Assembly: GCA_963843375.1 (NCBI GenBank)
Contig: CAWJKT010000019.1
Span: 1-36,853 of the forward strand
Reading direction: 5' to 3'
From: an uncultured Pseudomonadota bacterium
GTDB taxonomy: Bacteria; Oederibacteriota; Muellerivitia; Muellerivitales; Muellerivitaceae
Length of the DNA stretch: 36,853 nucleotides
Shown here: positions 15,720 to 31,156 of the stretch, piece after piece
How positions within the stretch are numbered: the stretch's first letter is position 1
Layout: the number at the start of each line of letters is the position of its first letter
Notes under the pieces: model-generated
Database searches by the model: none
Told to the model about the DNA's origin: nothing
Seen by the model: the letters and a program-made list of their open reading frames with translations, nothing else
Made by a program: the position numbers and the translations under genes

Positions 15720-16769
15720 TTAAGGTTGGGTGATGGCGTTCTGTTCCAAGGTGACATCGGTTTGGGAGAACAGTCTCCCGGACACCGATGCGCCCGTCAC
15801 GAGGGTGATGTCCTTGTAATCCAGGATTACACCCTCAAAATAGGCGTTCGACCCGATCGCCGTAGTATCCGCAACCGTCCAGGTGACGTTCTGGGCCAGC
15901 CCGCCGTTTTCCATGATGATCGACACGCCGGAGGCCAAGGTAAGGGTGCCGCCAACTTGGAATATCCAAGTGGCGGTCGAATCGCCTAGCGCGTCGAGAT
16001 AGAGATTCGTCGTTATGTCGACCGCGCTGGCCCATTCGTATTTGCCCCGGGTCAGGGTGAGCCCGCTGAGGGTTCCACCATCCAGTCCTGTGACGCAATT
16101 CGCCTGCCCATTAGCGTTCGTGTAAGCGGTATCCATGTCGGCGATGGCGGTATTGATGGCGGTGGTGGCCTGAACAAAACAGGAGGGACCCGTGGGATCG
16201 ATCTCGTATATGGTTCCGTTCACCTCGGCGCAGGTTATCCCGATCTCGGTGCCTGTACCGGAGTTCGCGACATTGCCGGTGACCGCCGAAGAAGGGACAT
16301 CGGTGATTCCCGTTTCCGCCAGGATCACATAATTTCCGGCCGTACCCAAGTTGACAGCCGCAGGATTGGCACAGGCCGCAACGGGTGTAATGGTACCGCT
16401 GGGCGTGGTCGTGGGCGTACCCGTGGGGGTGGCCGATGGCGAGTTTGTTGGCGTTTCCGTTAGGATGGGTGAAATCGTGCCGGTTGGCGTCATTGTGGGG
16501 GTGCCTGTTGACGTTTGCGACGGGGTGGCCGAAAAGGTGCTTGTTGGGGTTTTTGAGGCGATGGCCGAAGGCGTGACTGTTGGCGTCCTCGTGGAGGTGG
16601 AGGTTATTGCGGGCGTGGTCGTCAATGTTTCTGCCGCCATGGGACCCGTGACACCCTTATTCCAGGTTCCGCAGCCGGCCGTGATGAAAATGACCGGGCT
16701 TACCGACAAGAACAATGTCATTAGAAACTTCTTGTTCACGATCAAAAACTTCTTTGTCCTTGAAAACAT
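15720..16769 (-). CDS. Ice-binding family (DUF3494) lipoprotein with Thr/Pro-rich stalk
   Basis: Lipobox TAGC, long TPT/S linker, VNLGTAGNYVILA, DMDTAYTNA, WIFQVGGTLT, EGVIL..ITLVTGASVSGRLFSQTDVTL. Confidence 0.9.
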   Translation of the reverse strand: MFSRTKKFLIVNKKFLMTLFLSVSPVIFITAGCGTWNKGVTGPMAAETLTTTPAITSTSTRTPTVTPSAIASKTPTSTFSATPSQTSTGTPTMTPTGTISPILTETPTNSPSATPTGTPTTTPSGTITPVAACANPAAVNLGTAGNYVILAETGITDVPSSAVTGNVANSGTGTEIGITCAEVNGTIYEIDPTGPSCFVQATTAINTAIADMDTAYTNANGQANCVTGLDGGTLSGLTLTRGKYEWASAVDITTNLYLDALGDSTATWIFQVGGTLTLASGVSIIMENGGLAQNVTWTVADTTAIGSNAYFEGVILDYKDITLVTGASVSGRLFSQTDVTLEQNAITQP

Positions 16770-19726: not shown

Positions 19727-20083
19727 TCACTTGTTGAATTTCCCCCTTAACTTCAAGTTTAGGCTTTTAAGTTCTTCGATGTTACATTTGATTTGGTCGA
19801 TCAGTTTTCGCGTTTCTTCGACAAGTTGAGGAAGGGTCACGTGACAACGGGGATTGCGCCCGAGTATGGTGACCGCGGTTTCAACAACTTCCATCTTCAT
19901 TAATCCGCACGTGCTTGCGGGTGATGGCAAAACCCTCGCACATGAAACGGCGTAAGGTTTCTTCGCCAGAACACCTATTCAGCATTTTTAGACCCCTGCT
20001 TTCCAAAAAGACTTCAAGGTCCGATCGATGGGCGGGTCTGTCGTCTGCCAAAAGAATGTTCGAGGTTTTTTTATTTATTTCAT
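19727..20083 (-). pseudogene. Decayed tandem paralog of the adjacent receiver protein
   Basis: Fragments NILLADDRPAH..SGEETLRRFMCEGFAI / METAVTI-like / RKLIDQIKCNIEELKS align with 19111-19638. Early stop, frameshift and internal deletion. Confidence 0.7.
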
Positions 20084-20414
20084 GGCCTGTCTCCTATATG
20101 TTCAACGGGGATGGCCTTAGGCCCCCTGTAGCCCGGGATATTCTTTAAATCTTGAAACTTTCCAAGGTTTTAGCCCTCAACCGTCCGCGTCTTTCGGGGA
20201 ATGATCGAGGGCTTCCCTTCAACGAAAAATTAAGATCAGTACAACGATCAATATCACAAGTCCTATTCCGCCTCCAATATACATAACGCCTCCTTTTACT
20301 TTTTCAACCTACTCTTGTTTCCAAACACCCGCACTTCGCGGACCTGGTTAAAATCTTTTTCGGAAGGGTATTGATCATTCTCTTCTTTTTTAGCCGGGCA
20401 TCGGATAAATCTTT

Positions 20415-21593
20415 TTAACCGCCAACCCCCGCGGGAGCCATCATTTCCAACACGGCTCTATTTTCATCATGCCGCACGAATCTGCCGATATGAGCGGTGT
20501 GTTTCAAAGGCTCGGAGGATCCCCGGATGGACAGGGTCACTTCATTGGCTTCCGGATTGGGTATGTTAAACTCCTTGGCCGCCCAGGCCAGGATCTTCCG
20601 AACCGTGGTCGAGGGCGAGAAGTGGGTTTGATGCTCATGGCCATTGAAATGGACCACCACCCCAATCTTTTTCTGCGTGTGAACGTGATGGATCTTATGG
20701 CGAGGGTGTTTTGCCTCCACCCGGTGATTCGGATTTAAGGGAATATCTTCGTTTTCCAAAAAAAGGTGAGCTTCAGTCGCGGGAAAATTTCCGATCTGAG
20801 CCACGGAGACGATGATTTCCTGGAAGGTGGCCCCGGGTTTAATCGCTACCTTGACCATCCCGGCCAATCCGGCACCTTCTACCAAAATTTCTTCCTGAGC
20901 CAATAAGGCAGCTTGCGCCTTGGCCGCTTCAGCCGCCAATTGGGCCTCTTTCGCCAAACGCTCTTGATCCGCTAATCGAACTGTTTTGGCAGTGGCTTCC
21001 TCGGTCCATTTGGCATCGTTTCCTAAAATCACTTCATCAGTCAAAAGGGCCCATTGCGCCGAATTCTCTTCCTCATTCGATCCGGCCGCTTTTGCGGCCG
21101 CTTCTTCACGAGCCAATTTGGCGCTGTTGGCTAAAGTCGTTTTATCCCTTTGGTAACGGGCTCGAACCATCTGCGCCAACAGGAGAAGCAGAAGAAGCCA
21201 GAGAAGGAGCCAGGGCCAGCCATACGTGCCCCCCATAAAACTTTGGGGAAAATGGGCCGCCACTGGAGGCAATGGCTGGGAAATGGCTGGGGGCGCCGCC
21301 ACCGACGCCGCTAAAACCACCGGGAGGGCCTGAACGGCGGTCCAACCGGCGGAATGGGAAGCGATTGAGGGTTTTTCGGTTGCCTTATCAGCCGGTGGAG
21401 CGGCCGAGGCGGCTGGAACGACCTCGTTGGTTTCCGGTGCCGCAGTCGGCTCAGGATTGAGGACCGATTCGGGCGCCTTTGAACTCCGGATGTCGCTGCC
21501 AACGCAGGAGGTAAAAAACAAAGCACAAGAGCCAAGAAGAAAAACAATAAGGATGGAAGAAAAGGGATGTTTCAAGAGCGCCTCCTCAGACAT
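20415..21593 (-). CDS. Membrane-anchored tandem ubiquitin-like protein (lipoprotein signal, Pro/Ala linker, TM, coiled coil, BilA-like Ubl ending VGG)
   Basis: FFTSC lipobox-like motif (Cys30), WPWLLLWLLLLLLL TM. The last ~160 aa align along their length with 24102-24608 and end PAGVGG*. Confidence 0.85.
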   Translation of the reverse strand: MSEEALLKHPFSSILIVFLLGSCALFFTSCVGSDIRSSKAPESVLNPEPTAAPETNEVVPAASAAPPADKATEKPSIASHSAGWTAVQALPVVLAASVAAPPAISQPLPPVAAHFPQSFMGGTYGWPWLLLWLLLLLLLAQMVRARYQRDKTTLANSAKLAREEAAAKAAGSNEEENSAQWALLTDEVILGNDAKWTEEATAKTVRLADQERLAKEAQLAAEAAKAQAALLAQEEILVEGAGLAGMVKVAIKPGATFQEIIVSVAQIGNFPATEAHLFLENEDIPLNPNHRVEAKHPRHKIHHVHTQKKIGVVVHFNGHEHQTHFSPSTTVRKILAWAAKEFNIPNPEANEVTLSIRGSSEPLKHTAHIGRFVRHDENRAVLEMMAPAGVGG

Positions 21594-21676
21594 TGCGGTG
21601 GGTTCTTGCGGAGAGCGCCTTATGATCGGTCGCCCCCCACAGAACCATCGAGAGAATCATTTCTTAAGCTTTTAAA

Positions 21677-21692
21677 AGCAAGGGACGTGCCA
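21677..21692 (-). promoter_or_regulatory. sigma54 -24/-12 promoter of the membrane Ubl gene
   Basis: TGGCACGTCCCTTGCT, a perfect match to TGGCAC-N5-TTGC. Confidence 0.9.
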
Positions 21693-21800
21693 TTGTCCGG
21701 GAACCTCTTTCTATACCTTCAAAACGATTTCTTCAAAATAGCGACTATCAATAAAATAATTAATTATCAAAGTGGGAGACCGTGAGTTTGTTTGAGGTCA

Positions 21801-23141
21801 TCACCACGTCATTGATTCCGAATAGCCCAAGTTTTTCACTTTTAACGACTTATCGAAGTGGGTTCGGATTTCGGGAAATTCCATCGTTGAGCCGGTCAGG
21901 GTCCGAAAGGGCGGTTCCAGCGAGGCCAACCGAATCGCTTGGGTGATCACCAACGTGCTGGTGAAGACACTCACGAAGGGAACCGCCACGTTCGCCCCGG
22001 CGATTTCGGCAATCCCGCACTCCTCCTCGGGGTACTTTCGCGCCTCCTCCCGGTAGGAACGGAGGGCCTTATTCGCCTCAATTCTTTGGTTTTCCCCCGC
22101 CCCGTCATCCTTTAGGATGTCCTCGGGCCTGAAGTTTTCGTCAAAAACATTCACCCGGTAAAGATGGTAGCTGTCGGCCCTGTTCCCCAGTCCCGCGTCG
22201 ATCACATAATCGAAATTGGCTTTTCCCAGAAGTCTGCGGGTCGCTGCGTTATCCAGCCCTGAGAGGACCATTGAAGGCTCGAAATTCCTGCGCCGGGTGT
22301 TTTCGTCGAAAGGCCGGTCGTTGCGGGTCACCTTAAAGCCCATACGGAGGGCCCAGTCCTCCATGATTTTGCTTTTGCGCGCGCCCACGTCGTCATGCCC
22401 TGTCAGGACAGAAGTTCCGCAATTGGAAGGCTGAACAAAGTCGAAATCCTGGAGCAAAAGCTCGACCTCTTGGGGTTCCTTGAACGGAAGCAATCCCAGG
22501 GTCCAAAGATAGGCTTGGCCCAAATTCCCCAGGCCCAAGGCCCAAAGAGATTTGGGCAGGTAAACTTGTTTCTTCTCGGGGTTAGAATTTTGAACCGGAT
22601 CCCAGATGGAAACAGTGGAGGATTTCCGTCCGGCCCTGGGATCTCCCAAGGCGCGTTTAAAGGCTTCCGAAACCGCCAGGGACCCCGCTGCGATGCCCGC
22701 CAGGACGTTGGAACCGACTCCTAATGGCTGGCTATCATCGATAGGACGAAGACCGACTTTCCATCCGTCCCACCAGGGTTTTACCGACCAGCCCGTCCAA
22801 CCAGTTTGTGAATAGCCAATCACGATCGAGTAATCGGCCTTCACAGCCTTCTTGGCACCCAACGCGGCCGCGGCTTCCCCCACCGTTTGGTGGGGAGGCA
22901 AAGAAAGAATCAGTTTTTCGTGGACCGCTCCAGTCAGGCAAACGCCTCCCCGGAAACTGCGCACCCCTGTCACCACCGCGGTCAAGGCGGCGGCCTGAGC
23001 GGCGGGCTGGGCCGAATCCGACACGCTCAAGTGCACTTCAAGAGTTAATTGGTTGAAAAATACTTGGCCTTCCTCCAGGCCGCCCAAGCCGCTTTCCGGG
23101 TAAAGTTTGAGAAGCCGGGTCGTTTCAGGGTCGATATTCAT
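21801..23141 (-). CDS. bilD: E1-like (ThiF/HesA-family) activating enzyme, BilD-like
   Basis: GLGNLG, QDFD..SN, GLDN..TRR, DAGLG, candidate catalytic ECG..AG..VAVPFVS (Cys codon 22017-22019), extra N-terminal domain. Start ATG 23141 abuts the JAB stop. Confidence 0.88.
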   Translation of the reverse strand: MNIDPETTRLLKLYPESGLGGLEEGQVFFNQLTLEVHLSVSDSAQPAAQAAALTAVVTGVRSFRGGVCLTGAVHEKLILSLPPHQTVGEAAAALGAKKAVKADYSIVIGYSQTGWTGWSVKPWWDGWKVGLRPIDDSQPLGVGSNVLAGIAAGSLAVSEAFKRALGDPRAGRKSSTVSIWDPVQNSNPEKKQVYLPKSLWALGLGNLGQAYLWTLGLLPFKEPQEVELLLQDFDFVQPSNCGTSVLTGHDDVGARKSKIMEDWALRMGFKVTRNDRPFDENTRRRNFEPSMVLSGLDNAATRRLLGKANFDYVIDAGLGNRADSYHLYRVNVFDENFRPEDILKDDGAGENQRIEANKALRSYREEARKYPEEECGIAEIAGANVAVPFVSVFTSTLVITQAIRLASLEPPFRTLTGSTMEFPEIRTHFDKSLKVKNLGYSESMTW

Positions 23142-23142
23142 G

Positions 23143-23658
23143 TTAGGAGGGGTCCAATCGGAAATAGCGGGGACCTTCCAGTGAATGGTCGGTCCAATGG
23201 TGGTTGCCCTGGTACTCATAGAGACCGATGTGTCCGGGTAGAACGTTGTTGAGAGCGTAATGGGAAAGGATGACCGCCAAGTGCCCCGCCAGGGGCATCA
23301 TGGGATGTTCCCGATCGGACGGGCTTTGCCCGAAACCAAGGGCATGCACATGAACGTCCGCGACAACTTCCAAACCCTCGTCCCGGCATATGTTCCAAAG
23401 CGATCCATATTGGCCACCGTCGAATTCCACGATTCCTCTGTCAAAACAGTGTGGGTCTAAGTCGTCGTAATAGACGAACCGGAGGATTCGCCGGGTTTTC
23501 GCTTCCTTTTTGCCGAGCAAGAATGCCCCGCTCTCCCGGGCGTTCCCTGTACGGCGCTGAAGTTCGCGGGCTCCCCTATCCCAAAGGCTTTTCGCGCAAG
23601 CCAACCCGGGGGAAGATTCAGCGATTTTCGGATGGAATGTGGCGGTTGAGCCGTTCAT
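23143..23658 (-). CDS. bilC: JAB/JAMM metalloprotease (deubiquitinase-like), BilC-like
   Basis: RESGAFLLG and DVHVH..QSPSD (E..HxH..SxxD). ATG 23658 follows GGAGG and overlaps the E2 end. Confidence 0.9.
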   Translation of the reverse strand: MNGSTATFHPKIAESSPGLACAKSLWDRGARELQRRTGNARESGAFLLGKKEAKTRRILRFVYYDDLDPHCFDRGIVEFDGGQYGSLWNICRDEGLEVVADVHVHALGFGQSPSDREHPMMPLAGHLAVILSHYALNNVLPGHIGLYEYQGNHHWTDHSLEGPRYFRLDPS

Positions 23659-24100
23659 AAATGTCCTCCAACACAAAAGTTAAATCCCGGTCGGGGCGCC
23701 AAGCCAAATAAGGATGTTTGTTTTGGGCGTCTAAGTGCGGACCCGCTTCTTTTTCCCATGGTCGGTAAACGTGGCTTTCCTGCCAGGGCTTGAAGGGATC
23801 GAACATTTCCCGGGTTCCGTCGGAATTTTTTTTTCGAGGCCTGTTTTCTTCCCGGATTTCCCTGTCCGAATCCATCTCCCAAAGCTGGCAGGAGGGCGCC
23901 TGTCCTGGGTAGCGGTTCAAGCCGAACTTGAACCGGAACCAGATGGGAGTTCCATTGCCTTCGCCAGCATTTACCAGTATGAATAAAATGGGAAATTCGA
24001 AGGACTGGAGTCGCCAAAAACCCCTGCGGATTCCGGCTCGGAACGCAACGGAGTCCAAATCCCGTTCCACCCAATCCAGAGCAGGGTCCTGGATCGGCAT
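23618..24100 (-). CDS. bilB: E2-like conjugating-fold protein, BilB-like
   Basis: Lies between Ubl and JAB; FRAG..RG.W, YPGQAP (E2 YPxxPP-like), HP..AW.P..LTFVLEDIYERLN. Confidence 0.75.
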   Translation of the reverse strand: MPIQDPALDWVERDLDSVAFRAGIRRGFWRLQSFEFPILFILVNAGEGNGTPIWFRFKFGLNRYPGQAPSCQLWEMDSDREIREENRPRKKNSDGTREMFDPFKPWQESHVYRPWEKEAGPHLDAQNKHPYLAWRPDRDLTFVLEDIYERLNRHIPSENR

Positions 24101-24101
24101 T

Positions 24102-24608
24102 TTACCCGTTCACTTTCGCAGGGGTAATCACGTCCAACTCCAATGTGTGGCGGTCATGCGCCACGAAACGGCCGATATGGGCGTTTCCGCTCAAAGGAAC
24201 GGAGGAGCCGTGAAGGGCCAGGTATAATTCCGTCGCATCCTGCTCGGGAATGTTGAACTCATGATTCGCCCAGCCCATGACTTTCTTGACGGTGGCCGCA
24301 GGCGAGAAATGCATTTTGTGTTCCTGGCCGTTGAAGAACACCCCCACATTGATTTCCTTCTGCGTGTGGACGTGATGGACCTTGTGGCGCGGGTGCTTCG
24401 CTTCCAGGACATGGGTTGGGTTCAGGGGAACCGCTTCGTTTTCCAAAAAGAGGTAAGCTTTTTCCGGGGAAAAGTTCCCGGCCCGGGCCACGGCCACGAT
24501 GATTTCCTGCAGCTTGGCTCCGGTTTTCACTTTCACTTCGATCACCTCGGTCATTCCGGGACCTTCCACTAAAATCACTTCATCCAACTCCGTCGTTTCG
24601 TTTCGCAT
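24102..24608 (-). CDS. bilA: Tandem ubiquitin-like (ISG15-like) protein, BilA-like, ending KVNG
   Basis: First gene of the Ubl-E2-JAB-E1 operon; FSPAATVKKVMGWA, HIGRFV, C-terminal Gly. ATG 24608 after AAGGA, downstream of a sigma54 promoter. Confidence 0.85.
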   Translation of the reverse strand: MRNETTELDEVILVEGPGMTEVIEVKVKTGAKLQEIIVAVARAGNFSPEKAYLFLENEAVPLNPTHVLEAKHPRHKVHHVHTQKEINVGVFFNGQEHKMHFSPAATVKKVMGWANHEFNIPEQDATELYLALHGSSVPLSGNAHIGRFVAHDRHTLELDVITPAKVNG

Positions 24609-24659
24609 GAGGGTTCCTTCTTTCTCTAAATCTAAAATGATGGACAAGAGCAAGGTTAA

Positions 24660-24675
24660 AGCAACTATCGTGCCC
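24660..24675 (-). promoter_or_regulatory. sigma54 -24/-12 promoter of the Ubl-E2-JAB-E1 operon
   Basis: GGGCACGATAGTTGCT, GG-N10-GC. Confidence 0.85.
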
Positions 24676-24907
24676 CACCCCGCCCGGAAGGAACGGCGCC
24701 GAAATCACTGGCAGGCGAAGGAAAATCTTTTTTCGGGGTTCAAAAAAGGAAGCCTGAGGGCGGAAGTGGCAAAATGATTCGAGGGACTATCAATTTGATT
24801 TCAACGGAGTCATTACCTTCTCCGGAGGACGTCTCAAAAAATTCCTATAGGATTTTTCTGGCGACTTGTTCAAACTCGCAACTGCCGACTAGTTTAAAAT
24901 CCGTTTT

Positions 24908-25135
24908 TCATTGCCCCGTGTGGGGCGGAGGTGAAACCTGCTTCGCCCCCCACTTGGCGGTTCCGCTGACCTCTCGGACAGGCTTGGTCCTCTTAGGATG
25001 GCGGCCGAAGGTATGACCCTTTTCGTGTAATCGAATCCACTCGGCCTTTCCATTTTCCTGGCCGGACTGCGCCGGGACCATGGTCCCCGCCGTAGCCGTG
25101 AAGAGGATGACCGCAGCTAAAAGTATTTTTTTCAT
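24908..25135 (-). CDS. Small secreted hypothetical protein (75 aa)
   Basis: AAGGAG RBS; MKKILLAAVILFTATAG signal peptide; basic tail. Confidence 0.65.
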   Translation of the reverse strand: MKKILLAAVILFTATAGTMVPAQSGQENGKAEWIRLHEKGHTFGRHPKRTKPVREVSGTAKWGAKQVSPPPHTGQ

Positions 25136-25226: not shown

Positions 25227-26366
25227 CTAATCGGTCACGACGCAACCCGCGTTATCGAGCTCCATGATTTCAACTGGCACGTCCGGGTTCGTCAGGGGGT
25301 TACCTGGAACGTAGATTTCGCATTGGTGAGTCCCCAACCCCGAATTATTCACCAAGGATTGCAAATCTTGAATTTGGTTTGCGTCCAGATCCAATTCCGA
25401 CAGATTCGGCAACCCGGACAGGGCGGCGATGTTGATGACCTGGTTGGTGGTGACCTCCAGGAAAACCAATTTCGTCAATCCGGACAACGCCGTTAGGTCG
25501 TTAATCGCGTTGAACGAAATGTCTAGGTTTATCAAATTCGTCAACCCAGAAAGAGCAGCGATATTGCTGATTTGGTTGCCCGAGATGTCCAAGGCGTTTA
25601 ATTGTGTCATTCCGGTCAGGCCCGTGATATCGCTGATTTGGTTGTTACCGATTGAAAACGAATAAATACCTGTCAGGGCGGCTAGATCGGGCAAGGTCGT
25701 GATCTGGTTATAATCAAGTTGCAGGGAGGTGAGGGCGGTGAGATTTGTCACCGGCGACAGGTCGCTGACCTGCCCCGTAAAGATGCTCAGCGAGAGCAGC
25801 TGCGTCATCCTGGACAAAGCCGTGATGTCGCTAAAGGGGTTGTCATCAAGTATCAAGCTGTTCAATTGTGTCAATCCGGCTAGATCGGTGATATCACCGA
25901 TCTGGTTTATACCGAGATCCAAAACCTTTAAACCAGTGAGACCGGAAATGGACCCGGGGTTGGTGATTTTGTTTCCCGACAGGTTCAGGCCAGTCATGCT
26001 AGTGCAATATTCCAGGCCCGTCAGGTCAACGATGTTGTCGGAAATGGCGGTCAAGTTGACGAGGGTGGCCATATCACACGAGGTGATAGTGTCCGAGGCG
26101 CTTGAAATGATCCCGTTACTGATCAATACGCTTTGAACTGCGGCCAATAGGTTGGGGTCAGGGATATTCACCACCCCCGAAGGACAAGTAACGGTGGGTG
26201 TCGCGGAGTTATTGCCCGTCGGGGTTGGCGAACGAGGAGGGGTTGAAACCGGAATATTGTTTGGCGCCGCGGCGCCTGTTGGGCTGACGATTTGGGAAGG
26301 GCAACCGATGGATAATAATGCGATTCCAATTAAAAGGGAAAAAACCCCTGCGATTCGAAGTTTCAT
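25227..26366 (-). CDS. Internalin-like leucine-rich-repeat lipoprotein
   Basis: Lipobox SIGC, PT linker, IPDPNL cap, about 11 22-aa LxxLxLxxNQIxDLxxL repeats. Confidence 0.92.
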   Translation of the reverse strand: MKLRIAGVFSLLIGIALLSIGCPSQIVSPTGAAAPNNIPVSTPPRSPTPTGNNSATPTVTCPSGVVNIPDPNLLAAVQSVLISNGIISSASDTITSCDMATLVNLTAISDNIVDLTGLEYCTSMTGLNLSGNKITNPGSISGLTGLKVLDLGINQIGDITDLAGLTQLNSLILDDNPFSDITALSRMTQLLSLSIFTGQVSDLSPVTNLTALTSLQLDYNQITTLPDLAALTGIYSFSIGNNQISDITGLTGMTQLNALDISGNQISNIAALSGLTNLINLDISFNAINDLTALSGLTKLVFLEVTTNQVINIAALSGLPNLSELDLDANQIQDLQSLVNNSGLGTHQCEIYVPGNPLTNPDVPVEIMELDNAGCVVTD

Positions 26367-27011: not shown

Positions 27012-27770
27012 ATGATGATCGTTCGAAAGTCGGAAGAGCGCCGCCACATTGAGAAAATGGGCCATAAAACCTGGATTACCTTCGACTGGGAAAATAAGTC
27101 CGACCCCCTTCAAAACGGCTTCGGTCTGCTCAAAATACTTAACGAAGAAATACTTTCCCCGGGCACCGGATTCGTGCTTCACACCCATAAGGATATGGTG
27201 ATCATCACCTATCTTGGCGAAGGCGTGATCATCTATAAAGGCCCCTTGGAAGACGCTGATTTATTGTGGGCCAAGGAATTCCACCAGGCCAACGTCACTC
27301 CCGACAGTGAACAATATGCGTTTAATGTCTCAAAAACCGAGGATGCCCATATCTTCCAAAGCGGGTTTGCCCCCCGCGAGGGTTTTTTGAAGTCGGATGG
27401 GGTCAAAAAACTCTTTACCCACGCTGAGCGTCAGGGAATTTTAAAACTGATCGCTTCTCCAGACGGAAGGGAGGGGTCGCTTCCCATACAGCAAGACGCC
27501 CAAATGTACTCCGCCTTCATTCACAAAGGAAATCACATGGTTCATCCGCTTGCGCATGGCCGAAGCGCCTGGCTTCATGTGGTAAGGGGTGAAATTCTAA
27601 TGAACGATTTCAACTTTCAATCAGGGGATGGAGTAGGTTTATCCGACGAGATTTCCATTCCCTTTACGGCCCAAATGCCCACCGAAATCCTTCTCTTTGA
27701 TCTCGCAGAAACGGTAAGCCCCAAAATGGGGATGGAGCCGCAAAAAGAAACGGTTCTTTCCCAAAAATGA
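27012..27770 (+). CDS. Pirin-like bicupin (YhhW/YhaK family), degenerate metal site
   Basis: GFGLLKILNEE..PGTGF.LHTHKDM, LIASPDGREGSLPIQQDA, GRSAWLHVVRG, EILLFDL. Start 27012 after GGAGG. Confidence 0.85.
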   Translation: MMIVRKSEERRHIEKMGHKTWITFDWENKSDPLQNGFGLLKILNEEILSPGTGFVLHTHKDMVIITYLGEGVIIYKGPLEDADLLWAKEFHQANVTPDSEQYAFNVSKTEDAHIFQSGFAPREGFLKSDGVKKLFTHAERQGILKLIASPDGREGSLPIQQDAQMYSAFIHKGNHMVHPLAHGRSAWLHVVRGEILMNDFNFQSGDGVGLSDEISIPFTAQMPTEILLFDLAETVSPKMGMEPQKETVLSQK

Positions 27771-28921
27771 GCTTCCAATTGGTTAGACAAATGGGAGCGG
27801 GGGTCCAGGGCCGTGTTGTTTTTCTGATTCTCCTGTTTCTTGGGGTGTCGGGATGTGGAACCGTTCCACCGCGCCATGAAGAGACTACGGTTCCTGATGG
27901 CGGCGGCGCCCTTCCAACACCTAATGCGCAGGCAAATGAAACCGTACTGCCTCCACCGGCCAGAACCTTTCCACCCGTTAAACCCGCTATGGTTCGCCTG
28001 CCGGTCGTGGTGATCTTTCCCCAAGGAGGCGGAGTCTTTCAACATATCGCCAACCTAATCAAAGGCGGGATCAAGCAAGCGGCACAGAAAACGGTTTTGA
28101 AATCCCGCATGAGGTCACTCTGGGCGAAGATGGAGTCGCCCATCCGCATGGACAACAACCTCTGGCTTTTAATCCGGCCAACCTCTTTGAGCGTCGGGAA
28201 GATGAGGACCGACCTGAAGCTACCCTCGACCCTTCACGCAGTTTTGGAAATGACCGCTTCGCCCGAAATCCTTTTCGGGCCCATGCCTTTAACCACCCCG
28301 GTGGAAATGCCCCCTCTTCAACCCTTCCAGCCTGGGCCGGGTATCTTTCAAGCGATGACTAATACCCACATCAATTATGAGGATGCCAACCGTTATTTTC
28401 GGGACCCCCGCATGGGTATTATCGGCAAAGTCCTGCCCGGCACGGGGGAGCGAAAGCTGACCATCGAAGGTATCCGGCTTTCCGGGTCGGGCGGCAAGGT
28501 GGTCGTCGAAGTAAAACTGCACTACAATCCTCTGATTGTTAATTTGACTGGCAATCCGGCGGACTTGACCCTTTATCTTCGGGGCACTCCCCGTTATCTT
28601 TTGAAACAGCGGGTGTTTGATTTGCCGGACCTGGAATACGACATCAAGTCCAACGATTTGATCCTTCAAGTCGCCGATTTTATTTTCAAATCGGATTTTA
28701 AGGACCAATTGCGCCGAATTGCCGTGGTCCCCGTCGGCTTAAAGATGGACATCCTCAAGGATAAAATGAGTAAAAAATTAAACCGGGCTTTGGACCGTTA
28801 TATCCATGTCCGGACCCAGGTGAATTCTTTCGAGGTATTGGACGGCTATGCGGACAACGAGGGGATTGAAGTGCGGGTGACCCTCAAGGGAACCGCAACC
28901 CTTGAAGTGATCTGGATGTAA
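27767..28921 (+). CDS. Putative lipoprotein, DUF4403-like
   Basis: Lipobox VSGC; beta-rich; clear paralog of 28960-30051. DUF4403 resemblance (LYLRGTP.Y..DLEYDIKS) is from recall only. Confidence 0.65.
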   Translation: MSFQLVRQMGAGVQGRVVFLILLFLGVSGCGTVPPRHEETTVPDGGGALPTPNAQANETVLPPPARTFPPVKPAMVRLPVVVIFPQGGGVFQHIANLIKGGIKQAAQKTVLKSRMRSLWAKMESPIRMDNNLWLLIRPTSLSVGKMRTDLKLPSTLHAVLEMTASPEILFGPMPLTTPVEMPPLQPFQPGPGIFQAMTNTHINYEDANRYFRDPRMGIIGKVLPGTGERKLTIEGIRLSGSGGKVVVEVKLHYNPLIVNLTGNPADLTLYLRGTPRYLLKQRVFDLPDLEYDIKSNDLILQVADFIFKSDFKDQLRRIAVVPVGLKMDILKDKMSKKLNRALDRYIHVRTQVNSFEVLDGYADNEGIEVRVTLKGTATLEVIWM

Positions 28922-28959: not shown

Positions 28960-30051
28960 TTAATCCCATTTCACCTGCATGGTCGCGGCTCCCCTGATGG
29001 AAATCCTCGCTTCAATCCCATCGTTGTCGGCGAATCCGTCCAGCATTTTCAAGGAATTTACCTGGGTGCTGAGGCTGATATTGTGGCTCAAGGACTTGTT
29101 TAAAACGACATTCAATCTGGCTTTAAGGGAGTCCATTTTAGGGCCGACGGGGATTCGGGTGAACTTGCGCAGTTGATTTTTTAAATCCGAATCAAGAATC
29201 CAACGGGCGATTTTAACCATTAAATCATTGGACTTGATGTCGAAGTCCAGGTCCGGAAAATCAAACGCCCGTTGCTTGGAAAGAAACCGGGGCGTGCCCC
29301 CGAGGTAAAGAGTCATTCGGGCGGGCTTGCCGGTCAAATTGACGATCAAGGGATTGTAGTGCAGTTTCACTTCAACGATTACTTTTCCGCCTGAACCGTA
29401 TAGCCTGATCCCTTCGAGGGTGAGCTTTCGGTTTCCCGTACCCGGCAAAACCATACCGATCAGTTTCAGCCGTGGATCTTGTAAAAATCGATCGGCCTCT
29501 TCATAGGTAATGCGGGTATTGCTCATCGCTTGAAATATGCCCGGCCCCTGCTGAAAAGTCCGAAGCAGAGGCATGGCAACGGGAGAGATCAAGGGTTTGG
29601 GCCCGAAGAGGATCTCGGGCGAGGCGGTCATTTCCAAAACCACATGGGTCGTCGACGCCATTTTGAGGTCGGTTCTTATCTTTCCGATACTCATGGTTTC
29701 GGGCCGGACTAAAAGCCAAATTCCCTTATCCAAGAAAACAGGCGCCTCCATATCCGCCCAAAGGCCCTTCAGCTTGGACTTCAAAACAATCCCCTGCGCC
29801 AATTGTTTGATTCCGCCTTTGAAAAGATTGGCGATATTTTGGACGACACCGCCGCCACTGGGAAAGGTAATGACCACCGGCAGGCGAACCATGGAAGATT
29901 TTACCGGTGGAAAACTTGTCACTGGAGCCGGCAGTACCGTCACCTCGTGGATCGGGAGGGTGCTGCATCCCGCAGCCAAGAAAGGCGCGAGGATCAGAAA
30001 AAGGAAGGTCCTCCTTATCCGATTCAAGGGGCGCGGAGTAGTGGTGTTCAT
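28960..30051 (-). CDS. Putative lipoprotein, DUF4403-like, convergent paralog
   Basis: Lipobox AAGC; shares MVRLPVV, LEMTASPEILFGP, EVKLHYNPLIVNLTG with 27767-28921. ATG 30051 lies just after the NHL stop. Confidence 0.7.
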   Translation of the reverse strand: MNTTTPRPLNRIRRTFLFLILAPFLAAGCSTLPIHEVTVLPAPVTSFPPVKSSMVRLPVVITFPSGGGVVQNIANLFKGGIKQLAQGIVLKSKLKGLWADMEAPVFLDKGIWLLVRPETMSIGKIRTDLKMASTTHVVLEMTASPEILFGPKPLISPVAMPLLRTFQQGPGIFQAMSNTRITYEEADRFLQDPRLKLIGMVLPGTGNRKLTLEGIRLYGSGGKVIVEVKLHYNPLIVNLTGKPARMTLYLGGTPRFLSKQRAFDFPDLDFDIKSNDLMVKIARWILDSDLKNQLRKFTRIPVGPKMDSLKARLNVVLNKSLSHNISLSTQVNSLKMLDGFADNDGIEARISIRGAATMQVKWD

Positions 30052-30055
30052 TGGG

Positions 30056-31156
30056 TCAACGGATGGGATAGCCGTTCCCGTCATAAGGGGAAGGGCTTTC
30101 GGGAGTGGGGGTGGGATCATTCGGAAACCGGGGCGGAGCGGCGGCCACGGGCCGGATGCGTACCACCCAGTTGTTGGTGATATCTGTCAAGTAAATCCGG
30201 CTGAACCGGTCGCTAGTGATTCCGTGGAACCGTGGGCTGTTTTTCAATCCTGCCCAACGACGCCCTGCCTTCCACCGCCCCAGATACTCAAACTCGTCGT
30301 CGTCGCCATTATAAAAATCCACGTGATCTCCGTCAGCGATGGCGACTAGGCGAGTCGGAGTAATGGTGGCCCCGGCGGGTTCCTTGAATTGGTAAGGACC
30401 CTCGCCGTACCAGCCTTGTTGGGTGACAGGAACGGCGCGGTTGTCGAAAACCTCGAACCGGAAATTCCCCGTGTCGGCGATGATTCCTTGGTCGATATGG
30501 TTAACCGCCATTCCCATGGGATTATTGAATAGGTAATCGGCGTTTCCAAAGGAACCCCAAACGAAATGAAACTCACCCATGGGGCTGAATATTTGGACCC
30601 GGGAATTTCCCGAATCCAAAACCCAAATATTCCCGAAATGGTCCTTGGCGATGGTACGGGGCATGTTAAATTCACCGTTGCCTGTACCCTGGCTTCCCCA
30701 AGTCGTCACCGCCATTCCATTCGCGTCCAACACCACTACCCGGTGGTTGAGGGTATCCCCCACGTAAATTTGACCCGAGGGGTGGATGAGGATTCCACTG
30801 GGCTGGTTGAACTCGGGAGGGTCTTTCCAATCGGCCTTATCCCCGAAGGTTCCAATGGTTTTGAAGGTTTTACCGTCTGGAACCCAAACGACGATCCGGT
30901 TGTTTCCCGTGTCGGCAATATAAAGCGTGCCGTCGGGAGCGATTGATAGGGCTTCGGGATCCTTCAGACGGAGGATATCGGTTCCATCCGCGCGCCAAAT
31001 CTTGTCCAAAACATAAAAAGTGTTATTTTTAGGGGCGGGTGTTGTTATGAGAGTAATTGGGGGGGTGCCGGAGGAGTTCTGTGCTCCGTACAAGTCGGGT
31101 GTTAAGAAAATGGCCGCCATCAAAAAAAACCGCCGGAAATAATTATATCGAACCAT
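30056..31156 (-). CDS. Secreted NHL-repeat beta-propeller protein
   Basis: Repeats LYIADTGNNRI, IYVGDTLNHRV, IWVLDSGNSRVQ, IIADTGNFR. Confidence 0.92.
   Translation of the reverse strand: MVRYNYFRRFFLMAAIFLTPDLYGAQNSSGTPPITLITTPAPKNNTFYVLDKIWRADGTDILRLKDPEALSIAPDGTLYIADTGNNRIVVWVPDGKTFKTIGTFGDKADWKDPPEFNQPSGILIHPSGQIYVGDTLNHRVVVLDANGMAVTTWGSQGTGNGEFNMPRTIAKDHFGNIWVLDSGNSRVQIFSPMGEFHFVWGSFGNADYLFNNPMGMAVNHIDQGIIADTGNFRFEVFDNRAVPVTQQGWYGEGPYQFKEPAGATITPTRLVAIADGDHVDFYNGDDDEFEYLGRWKAGRRWAGLKNSPRFHGITSDRFSRIYLTDITNNWVVRIRPVAAAPPRFPNDPTPTPESPSPYDGNGYPIR

Follow-up and report, generated by a model that had tools for sequence, protein, structure and literature searches.

A predicted membrane-tethered paralogue of the ubiquitin-like protein BilA encoded beside a BilABCD operon

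We analysed a stretch of DNA of 36,853 nucleotides (the window; contig CAWJKT010000019.1 of assembly GCA_963843375.1, from an uncultured bacterium) that carries a BilABCD operon and, next to it on the same strand, a second BilA gene. Bil systems are the bacterial pathways most clearly comparable to ISG15-type antiviral tagging, and to our knowledge the ubiquitin-like (Ubl) proteins of the Bil systems described so far are soluble only. The product of the second gene, named tBilA here for membrane-tethered BilA paralogue (20415..21593, minus strand), joins a BilA-type Ubl domain ending in Gly-Gly to an N-terminal part with a lipoprotein-type signal, a transmembrane (TM) helix and a helical linker. 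We establish its anatomy, homology, fold, synteny and conservation, together with the pattern in which its terminal Gly is retained, and weigh what these may mean for its function.

The tBilA gene and its neighbours

The open reading frame (ORF) of tBilA is divided as follows.

20415..21593, minus strand: whole ORF, 392 amino acids (aa) from ATG, C-terminus MAPAGVGG
21504..21593, minus strand: lipoprotein-type signal peptide with lipobox FFTSC, its Cys being Cys30 from ATG and Cys24 from TTG
21219..21503, minus strand: predicted periplasmic disordered stretch rich in Pro/Ala/Ser/Thr, residues 31-125 (composition and AlphaFold2 confidence)
21165..21218, minus strand: TM helix WPWLLLWLLLLLLLAQMV, residues 126-143, followed by RARYQRDK (hydrophobicity and charge bias; AlphaFold2 confidence >90)
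20898..21164, minus strand: predicted cytoplasmic helical Ala/Glu/Lys linker, residues 144-232 (AlphaFold2 helices)
20418..20897, minus strand: tandem beta-grasp (ISG15-like) BilA domain ending in Gly-Gly, residues 233-392 (PADLOC, AlphaFold2, Foldseek)

BLASTP aligned residues 233-392 of tBilA with the soluble BilA of the window (24102-24653) without gaps and with 92/160 positions identical (58%, E 2e-65); the region of about 160 aa that a preliminary description of this DNA had called colinear with the soluble Ubl is a BilA paralogue. The PADLOC BilA profile matched residues 235-383 at 2.6e-33 (4.2e-34 for the soluble copy), and the Pfam set used, from which the BilA family PF27055 was absent, gave sub-threshold TUG-UBL1 matches only on both copies. 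An AlphaFold2 model was built from a 50-row alignment (mean predicted local distance difference test, pLDDT, 75). Residues 233-385 formed two beta-grasp units with pLDDT mostly >90. The top Protein Data Bank (PDB) matches of the model by Foldseek were linear di-ubiquitin, ISG15, FAT10 and the tandem Ubl of OASL, at probability 1.00, and polyubiquitin chains in the PDB were also matched by sequence with a BilA profile that included the tBilA domain. Helices were predicted at residues 125-170 and 177-231, in keeping with the Ala/Glu/Lys helical segment noted earlier after the TM helix. Residues 26-122 had pLDDT <50 for the most part, and residues 31-125 contained 16% Pro, 21% Ala and 17% Ser plus Thr.

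The single ORF proposed on the minus strand was found as described, with a correction at its start. A start at the ATG gives tBilA an acidic n-region, and a GGAGG stands 5 nucleotides (nt) upstream of a TTG at codon 7. The arrangement GGAGG-spacer-TTG/GTG/ATG-AAA was common to the seven loci examined (the window, listed as WIN, and L003, L013, L011, L012, L005 and L023); the slice taken from an eighth, L004, was off register. Because this spacing recurs across the start sites of seven loci, the true start is probably the TTG at 21575, which would give a protein of 386 aa that begins MKHPFSS and carries its lipobox Cys at position 24, like its homologues. Read from the TTG, a positive n-region and a hydrophobic core are followed by FFTSC. 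Ser29 and Cys30 of the lipobox were nearly invariant in an alignment of 10 long homologues, upholding the earlier assignment of Cys30. A lipobox pattern in the style of PROSITE PS51257 matched 19/19 tethered-family rows tested; in seven rows, the window among them, the match stopped at a Cys (Cys15-21) that precedes the conserved one. The N-terminal Cys of tBilA is probably lipidated, judging from these features. An OmpA-type beta-barrel protein is encoded in the window, so a periplasm is expected in the organism.

The TM helix lies where it had been placed (about 21165-21220). In flanks of 15 aa each, tBilA has 0 charged residues before the helix and 4 Lys/Arg (K/R) against 1 Asp/Glu (D/E) after it, and the same bias was present in 10/10 family members, with 0-2 K/R before and 3-6 after. 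Read by the positive-inside bias, which is a rule of thumb for topology, the N-terminus of tBilA would be exported, about 95 residues would lie in the periplasm, and the linker and Ubl domain would be cytoplasmic, as the basic residues after the helix had suggested before. A periplasmic Ubl was considered and rejected, since both the charge bias that follows the helix and the fact that E1, E2 and JAB enzymes are cytoplasmic argue against it. The linker of about 90 aa in the window protein is not basic (13 K/R vs 15 D/E).

Continuity of the ORF was examined at contig level, at a depth of about 5, and runs X1 and X2 may represent the source sample. Logan contigs of runs X2, X3 and X4 covered 20300-21057, a segment that includes the junction of anchor and Ubl and a run of seven T (T7; 20762-20768), with 0 other letters and 0 gaps, so that the frame is continuous there in the contigs of three runs, in which rare variants of the T7 run could go unseen; contigs of X2 and X4 further covered 20998-21700 and 21070-21508. 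Run X1 yielded no contigs on the stretch, an absence that can be false. One protein in the collection, P0012 (2 members), is a frameshifted version of the window tBilA of 285 aa that reads ...HLFWKTKIFP. Loss of a single T from the T7 run (coding strand) would account for this reading and would remove the greater part of the Ubl domain. The frameshifted version could be either a sequencing error or a real slippage variant.

Directly upstream of tBilA, four genes lie contiguously on the minus strand in the order BilA-BilB-BilC-BilD, abutting or overlapping one another.

24102..24608, minus strand: soluble BilA, 168 aa, C-terminus PAKVNG (PADLOC BilA 4.2e-34; the representative P0018 is identical)
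23618..24100, minus strand: BilB, E2-like, DUF7665 (PADLOC BilB 2.4e-35; Pfam DUF7665 6e-18)
23143..23676, minus strand: BilC, JAB/JAMM peptidase (PADLOC BilC 2.1e-61; weak Pfam Prok-JAB match)
21801..23141, minus strand: BilD, E1, 446 aa (PADLOC BilD 1.4e-119)

All four Bil components, namely a two-beta-grasp Ubl, an E2-like BilB, a JAB BilC and an E1 BilD, were recognized by PADLOC in the window, and the E1, E2 and JAB named earlier as neighbours are among them. The PADLOC Bil models presumably derive from Type I, Collimonas-like systems. The nucleotide-binding motif GLGNLGQ and Cys375 of BilD were invariant in an alignment of 65 homologues; with the PADLOC matches, these conserved motifs make the enzyme set look intact. 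By its sequence the locus belongs to the BilABCD family. A mechanically called BilD ORF (21801-23219, 472 aa) overlaps BilC by 77 nt. Homologues and the protein collection's own entry of 446 aa indicate Met27 (23141) as the start, from which BilD abuts BilC. Only two BilA matches, the soluble and the tethered copy, were present in the genome from which the window comes (80% complete, 32 contigs).

The neighbourhood in the window is otherwise rich in envelope proteins, and no other recognizable defence genes were seen in it. Two convergent DUF4403 paralogues (27767-28921, plus strand; 28960-30120, minus strand), both with lipoprotein-like N-termini, lie near a leucine-rich-repeat lipoprotein (25227-26366), an NHL-repeat protein and an ice-binding-like lipoprotein (15720-16769).

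Members, plan and origin of the tethered family

A word-index search with the Ubl part of tBilA, in which proteins of 215-686 aa were allowed, recovered 11 long homologues. HMMER was run over 1.84 billion representatives and gave 293 BilA relatives at E <=0.001. Among the 150 of these that were listed, 14 had the long form (P0002, P0007, P0008, P0011, P0012, P0014, P0015, P0016, P0017, P0019, P0020, P0022, P0037 and P0073), 4 of these 14 being fragments or N-terminally cut; the remaining listed matches were proteins of about 160 aa or unrelated fusions.

The family has a common plan. An MK(R/H) start and a hydrophobic core lead to an [F/I][T/S/A]SC lipobox, which is followed by a conserved motif with the consensus AGNxVKNPQPPVTVL, 82-105 residues rich in Pro/Ala/Ser/Thr/Val, a W(P/L)WLLLL helix, basic residues, a helical linker of 90-378 aa (160-378 in the homologues) and the BilA domain. 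The linkers of the homologues are mostly strongly basic (9-12% Lys, net charge +26 to +46 in 7/10), whereas that of the window protein is neutral. A third beta-grasp unit is present in the subgroup P0001, P0002, P0014 and L005, and P0022 and P0073 have a single unit.

BilA was found in 6/99 species-representative genomes of the window's phylum, all six in one family, and was not found in a 99%-complete genome of the window's own genus. Given this patchy distribution the locus is accessory, which fits a defence system without proving one. As far as these sequences go, the tethered proteins are confined to one family of candidate division FCPU426. A canonical soluble BilA was seen in the same family in genome G064 (L022, 1474-1800), at a contig end and beside an XRE-like and ImmA-like pair; that family therefore also carries ordinary Bil systems.

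In a maximum-likelihood tree of 32 Ubl domains, all tethered domains formed one clade (support 88/99) that adjoins the soluble BilAs of the lineage, with other BilAs lying far off, across 1.15 changes per site on one branch. The placing of P0034, an outgroup row on a long branch that came out within the tethered clade, is unreliable. A single tethered clade beside the soluble BilAs of the lineage points to a single duplication of a local soluble BilA as the source of the tBilA family.

For the anchor part, residues 1-165 of P0008 were searched against a collection of 5.8 billion proteins, restricted to lengths of 322-1026 aa, and only two other BilA-fused proteins were found. A hidden Markov model of the anchor part matched a stand-alone protein of 178 aa on contig C11 of the window's own genome (E 4e-13), the only genome in which such a protein was found. 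The protein (L027, 6650-7186, minus strand) carries no Ubl domain and no Pfam match. It has an FLPAC lipobox, which the lipobox pattern did not match, a KAPETVLNPEE motif, a Pro/Thr-rich stretch and a W-rich TM helix with a basic flank, and its gene adjoins a tyrosine-integrase-like gene. We infer that tBilA arose by fusion of BilA to an anchor protein like this one, which may represent the donor of the anchor module.

Other unusual BilA relatives were seen in the searches. P0013 (274 aa) is a BilA-BilB (Ubl-E2) fusion with Pfam PF27055 and PF24702, and P0117 is a protein of 2224 aa with nine BilA-like stretches. P0135 (210 aa), considered as a TM-anchored BilA for its hydrophobic N-terminal extension, was rejected as its internal Met39 aligns with canonical starts; the extension is probably a mis-called start.

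The terminal glycine, operon context and selection

The conjugation Gly was present in 79/79 canonical BilA representatives and was the only invariant column among 80 sequences; the terminal Gly of tBilA aligns with that column. The canonical proteins end at the Gly in 61/79 cases and carry overhangs of 1-8 aa in 18/79. This agrees with Hor et al. (10.1101/2023.09.04.556158), where the Gly of BilA is reported to be fully conserved, the G163L variant loses defence and 12 homologues have overhangs of 2-9 aa past the Gly. In the Chambers et al. preprint, the JAB peptidase of a Type II system trims such overhangs, in agreement with those seen here.

In the tethered family, a terminal or near-terminal Gly was present in 4/20 distinct C-termini and absent from 16/20. 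The gene order sBilA-BilB-BilC-BilD-tBilA, in which sBilA is the soluble copy, was found in the window, in L003, L004 and L013, and in the fragments L014 and L017; TM-Ubl fusions beside bilD homologues, which the preliminary description had proposed to look for, thus exist beyond the window. Contexts and C-termini were as follows.

Window: BilBCD adjacent, C-terminus GVGG
L003/P0008: BilBCD adjacent, C-terminus RVIG
L013: BilBCD adjacent, C-terminus RVIVGK
P0009: context unknown, C-terminus RVMG
L011: sBilA then tBilA, BilBCD cleanly absent, C-terminus NPTRV
L012: sBilA then tBilA, BilBCD cleanly absent, C-terminus KVKIVD
L005, L015, L016: orphan after a GH94-like gene, C-terminus TKVTV (L018, of the same kind, is cut at a contig end)
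L023: orphan after a GH94-like gene, C-terminus ARMRV

Every operon-linked tBilA with a visible C-terminus (the window, L003 and L013) retains the Gly, and the one-residue overhang of L013 is normal since 18/79 canonical BilAs have overhangs of 1-8 aa. Among copies of known context, the Gly was lost wherever BilBCD were missing. No BilB, BilC or BilD was found between sBilA and tBilA in L011, nor within 8 kb on either side, and none was found between the two genes in L012. BilBCD were not found near the orphans L005, L015, L016, L018 and L023, and the best match to BilD in the genome of L005 (89% complete) was a generic ThiF-fold hit of 20 bits (E 1.6e-4). Gly-less forms were spread over at least four subclades of the tree, indicating that the Gly was lost repeatedly.

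The manner of loss can be read at L011 (8457-8489), where tBilA ends AGG GTA TAG GGG TAA: a nonsense codon has shortened the protein by two residues, and directly behind it the Gly codon and the former stop are still in place. The soluble BilA of L011 is degenerate as well (158 aa, with an internal deletion, ending KMKP and lacking a terminal Gly). In L012 (416-2458) the last 20 or so residues of tBilA (HDKHSLELDVITPPKVKIVD) resemble the tail of the L011 soluble BilA (HDKHSLELDVITPAKMKP) and are unlike the tails of other tBilAs, which suggests gene conversion between the two paralogues. The orphans of L005 (8004-9323), L015, L016 and L018 have three beta-grasp units, the second unit being duplicated, and show no terminal Gly. 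They follow a large GH94-like gene, from which the L005 copy is separated by an inserted pair of Fic-domain genes. The one-domain orphan of L023 follows the same GH94-like gene.

Pairwise Nei-Gojobori estimates of the ratio of nonsynonymous to synonymous change (dN/dS) were obtained for the Ubl domain.

L011 vs L012, both Gly-less, no BilBCD: dN/dS 0.19
L005 vs L018, orphans: dN/dS 0.04
Window vs L003, operon-linked: dN/dS 0.18
L003 vs L013, operon-linked: dN/dS 0.20
Soluble BilAs: dN/dS 0.12-0.20

The N-terminal part and the linker gave 0.19-0.57 where synonymous change (dS) could be estimated (two near-identical pairs had too few changes), a range that excludes two linker comparisons without an estimate. 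The low ratios in Gly-less copies indicate that these are not decaying pseudogenes. In the comparison of the window tBilA with that of L003, dS was saturated (1.56) and the Ubl domains were 59% identical, with both the Gly and the position of the stop kept. Retention despite saturation points to selection that acts on the Gly in the presence of the enzymes; for the operon-linked copies, in two independent lineages, the data are suggestive of such selection but not conclusive.

A putative conjugatable Ubl at the inner membrane and its alternatives

The reading we favour, and to which we give a little better than an even chance, is that the tBilA of this genome is a Ubl anchored in the inner membrane that can be conjugated, with the E1, E2 and JAB enzymes encoded next to it acting on it. 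It is the interpretation offered earlier, and of that proposal the paralogy, the anchor, the free C-terminus ending GVGG and the neighbouring genes all held, with a qualification from the 16/20 family C-termini that have no Gly. Among the observations that speak for it, the terminal Gly occupies a column that is invariant in the 79 canonical proteins, intact BilB, BilC and BilD genes immediately precede tBilA on its strand, and the Gly is kept in operon-linked copies and lost in copies of known context that lack BilBCD. Additions at the N-terminus are also tolerated by Bil/Bub Ubls. Coiled-coil, N/G-rich and DUF1508 domains occur naturally at the N-terminus of Bil/Bub Ubls (PMC11601603), and HA-tagged BilA was used for immunoprecipitation (Hor et al., 10.1101/2023.09.04.556158); the N-terminus of BilA can thus carry cargo. 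Prediction of a complex between BilD (65-row alignment) and the tBilA Ubl domain (80-row alignment), run without controls, gave scores of 0.44, 0.02 and 0.00 in three runs against a mark of 0.32, a spread that favours neither binding nor its absence.

The proposed mechanism would be as follows. The lipoprotein-type signal would export the N-terminus, about 95 disordered Pro/Ala-rich residues would remain in the periplasm, and the single TM helix would bring the chain back into the cytoplasm, where about 90 helical residues would hold the tandem beta-grasp domain off the membrane with its C-terminal Gly-Gly free. BilD would adenylate the Gly, and BilB would transfer tBilA to lysines of target proteins, as for soluble BilA. 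With an anchored modifier, each conjugate would be fixed at the inner membrane until cleaved by BilC, and the Bil system would have two arms, a diffusible tag (BilA) and a membrane trap (tBilA). Activation of tBilA by the E1, the identity of its targets and a role in phage defence are what we infer from the domains and the neighbouring genes. We hold the fuller version only tentatively and think it rather unlikely as a whole, namely that tBilA is a covalent membrane trap in which the E1 and E2 link its Gly-Gly to phage or host proteins, that its lipidated, Pro-rich periplasmic part may link the trap to envelope events such as phage entry, and that sister proteins without the enzymes have turned into non-conjugated forms.

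Several findings weigh against conjugation. Gly-less ends are numerous (TKVTV in P0001/2, NPTRV in P0003/4/5, VMTKV in P0010, FLTKN in P0011 and PARV in P0016/17, with further ones in P0014, P0015, P0019, P0020, P0022, P0037 and P0073), and the copies P0009, P0010, P0011, P0017, P0019 and P0020 are of unknown context. Retention of the Gly together with the operon amounts to only two independent lineages, the window and the clade of L003, L013 and P0009. Just ahead of the Gly, 77/79 canonical proteins have N/Q/E and the four Gly-bearing tBilAs have G, I, M or V, and the canonical tail V-[N/Q/E]-G is absent from the window tBilA; position -4 is Gly in the window protein and Arg in 41/79 canonical ones. 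The gap between BilD and tBilA measures 207 bp in the window and roughly 700 and 150 bp in L003 and L013, respectively, whereas BilA to BilD abut or overlap, so tBilA may be a transcription unit of its own. A scan of 19900-25100 found two promoter-like sites (2.5 expected) and four terminator-like sites (9.1 expected), none of them informative for that gap. Purifying selection on Gly-less copies further implies that the tethered Ubl domain has a selectable function needing neither the E1 and E2 nor a reactive Gly, and this conjugation-independent role could be the only one in this genome too.

These points lead to the best-surviving alternative, which we regard as possible though unlikely for the window protein: tBilA would be a non-conjugated integral-membrane protein with a Ubl domain, serving as a non-covalent dock or scaffold or using its Gly-Gly only to dock the E1 and E2 without transfer. 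Its place beside BilABCD would be a relic of the duplication, and its Gly-Gly ancestral and not yet lost. From the available sequences, this is what the family has become elsewhere. It accounts for the Gly-less majority of C-termini, for the intact ORFs of such copies (258-680 aa, Ubl dN/dS 0.04-0.19) in loci and genomes lacking BilBCD, for the recurrence of Gly loss, for a tail that is relaxed before the Gly in all Gly-bearing tBilAs and for the intergenic gap after BilD, and it has a precedent in the prenylated MUBs, which bind E2s at membranes and inhibit E2~Ub formation (PMC4996978). It sits poorly with an unselected Gly and exact stop being kept in two dS-saturated lineages, and with the coincidence of Gly loss and BilBCD loss wherever context is known. 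The orphans, moreover, have no E1 or E2 to dock, so that a purely recruiting role cannot be the shared function.

An improbable alternative is that tBilA regulates the Bil pathway or accepts its product, either as a sink, charged by the E1 and E2, that would keep these occupied or in place, or through lysines of its linker or Ubl domain that would receive soluble BilA as anchored chains. The long, very basic linkers of most homologues and the presence of two Ubl paralogues with one enzyme set would suit such a role, and the JAB peptidase could reverse such marks, as is known for Bil (Chambers et al. preprint). The linker of the window protein, however, is short (90 aa) and uncharged on balance, so a Lys-rich acceptor is not conserved, and the Gly-less orphans are left unexplained. 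An artefact of assembly or an indel as the source of the tBilA fusion, or an ORF mis-called across an unrelated membrane gene and a BilA gene, can be dismissed with near certainty. In its favour are the frameshifted P0012 and the low read depth. Against it, the architecture recurs in no fewer than 12 diverged homologues and in five long contigs independent of one another, which decides the matter more than the contig cover of junction and T7 run. All three parts of the protein (N-terminal, linker and Ubl) also give dN/dS <1 where dS can be estimated.

Compared with known systems, tBilA shares with the Type I BilABCD of Collimonas sp. OK412 (Hor et al., 10.1101/2023.09.04.556158) the tandem beta-grasp Ubl with a C-terminal Gly and the BilB, BilC and BilD partners, but the known BilA is soluble, of about 160 aa and present in one copy per operon. 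tBilA differs in some 230 extra N-terminal residues (signal and lipobox, periplasmic stretch, TM helix and helical linker), in its position after BilD behind an intergenic gap, and in having G, not N/Q/E, before the Gly. Ubls of Type II Bil and Bub operons that bear coiled-coil, N/G-rich or DUF1508 domains (PMC11601603; Chambers et al. preprint) are likewise extended at the N-terminus by sequence outside the Ubl, a helical segment of coiled-coil type included, and their conjugation end is free; unlike tBilA, their extensions are soluble and each is the only Ubl of its operon. The Type I Ubls are set aside as uniformly two-domain in PMC11601603.

The eukaryotic MUB/UBL3 proteins (PMC4996978, PMC10511055) resemble tBilA in placing a ubiquitin fold on a membrane and interacting with the ubiquitylation machinery, and they are a good analogue for the Gly-less members and for a scaffolding role. 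The resemblance is functional only, with no sequence relationship beyond the fold. The MUB anchor is a C-terminal CAAX prenylation, so the C-terminus of a MUB cannot be conjugated, whereas the N-terminal TM anchor of tBilA, probably with a lipidated Cys too, leaves its C-terminus free, and the GVGG end contains no Cys. Atg8/LC3 is a Ubl that is covalently associated with membranes, where it recruits cargo, its C-terminal Gly being conjugated to lipid. tBilA would differ in that it is bound to the membrane as soon as it is made and in that its Gly would be joined to target proteins.

In the literature searched, no membrane-tethered BilA paralogue is described, in line with the preliminary description; BilABCD itself is known. 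The words 'transmembrane' and 'membrane' have 0 occurrences in the main text of PMC11601603. In the available text of the 2023 preprints of Hor et al. and Chambers et al., 'transmembrane' does not occur and 'membrane' refers to blotting only; the Bub preprint mentions membranes for BubE only, and a 2026 review describes soluble BilA only. A literature search for BilA or BilD with 'transmembrane' gave nothing further, and the supplementary catalogues of the preprints might list one.

If the favoured reading is true, an integral-membrane modifier would allow targets to be relocalized covalently to the membrane and not merely decorated. The tethered family, a small uncultured clade known here from sequence, offers a natural experiment within one small family: the Gly is kept beside the E1, E2 and JAB, and where the enzymes were lost the Gly was lost and the fold kept. 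This pattern bears on the interconversion of Ubl modifiers and non-conjugated Ubl domains, and would, if true, show that the transition from modifier to domain, known in eukaryotes, occurs in bacteria as well.

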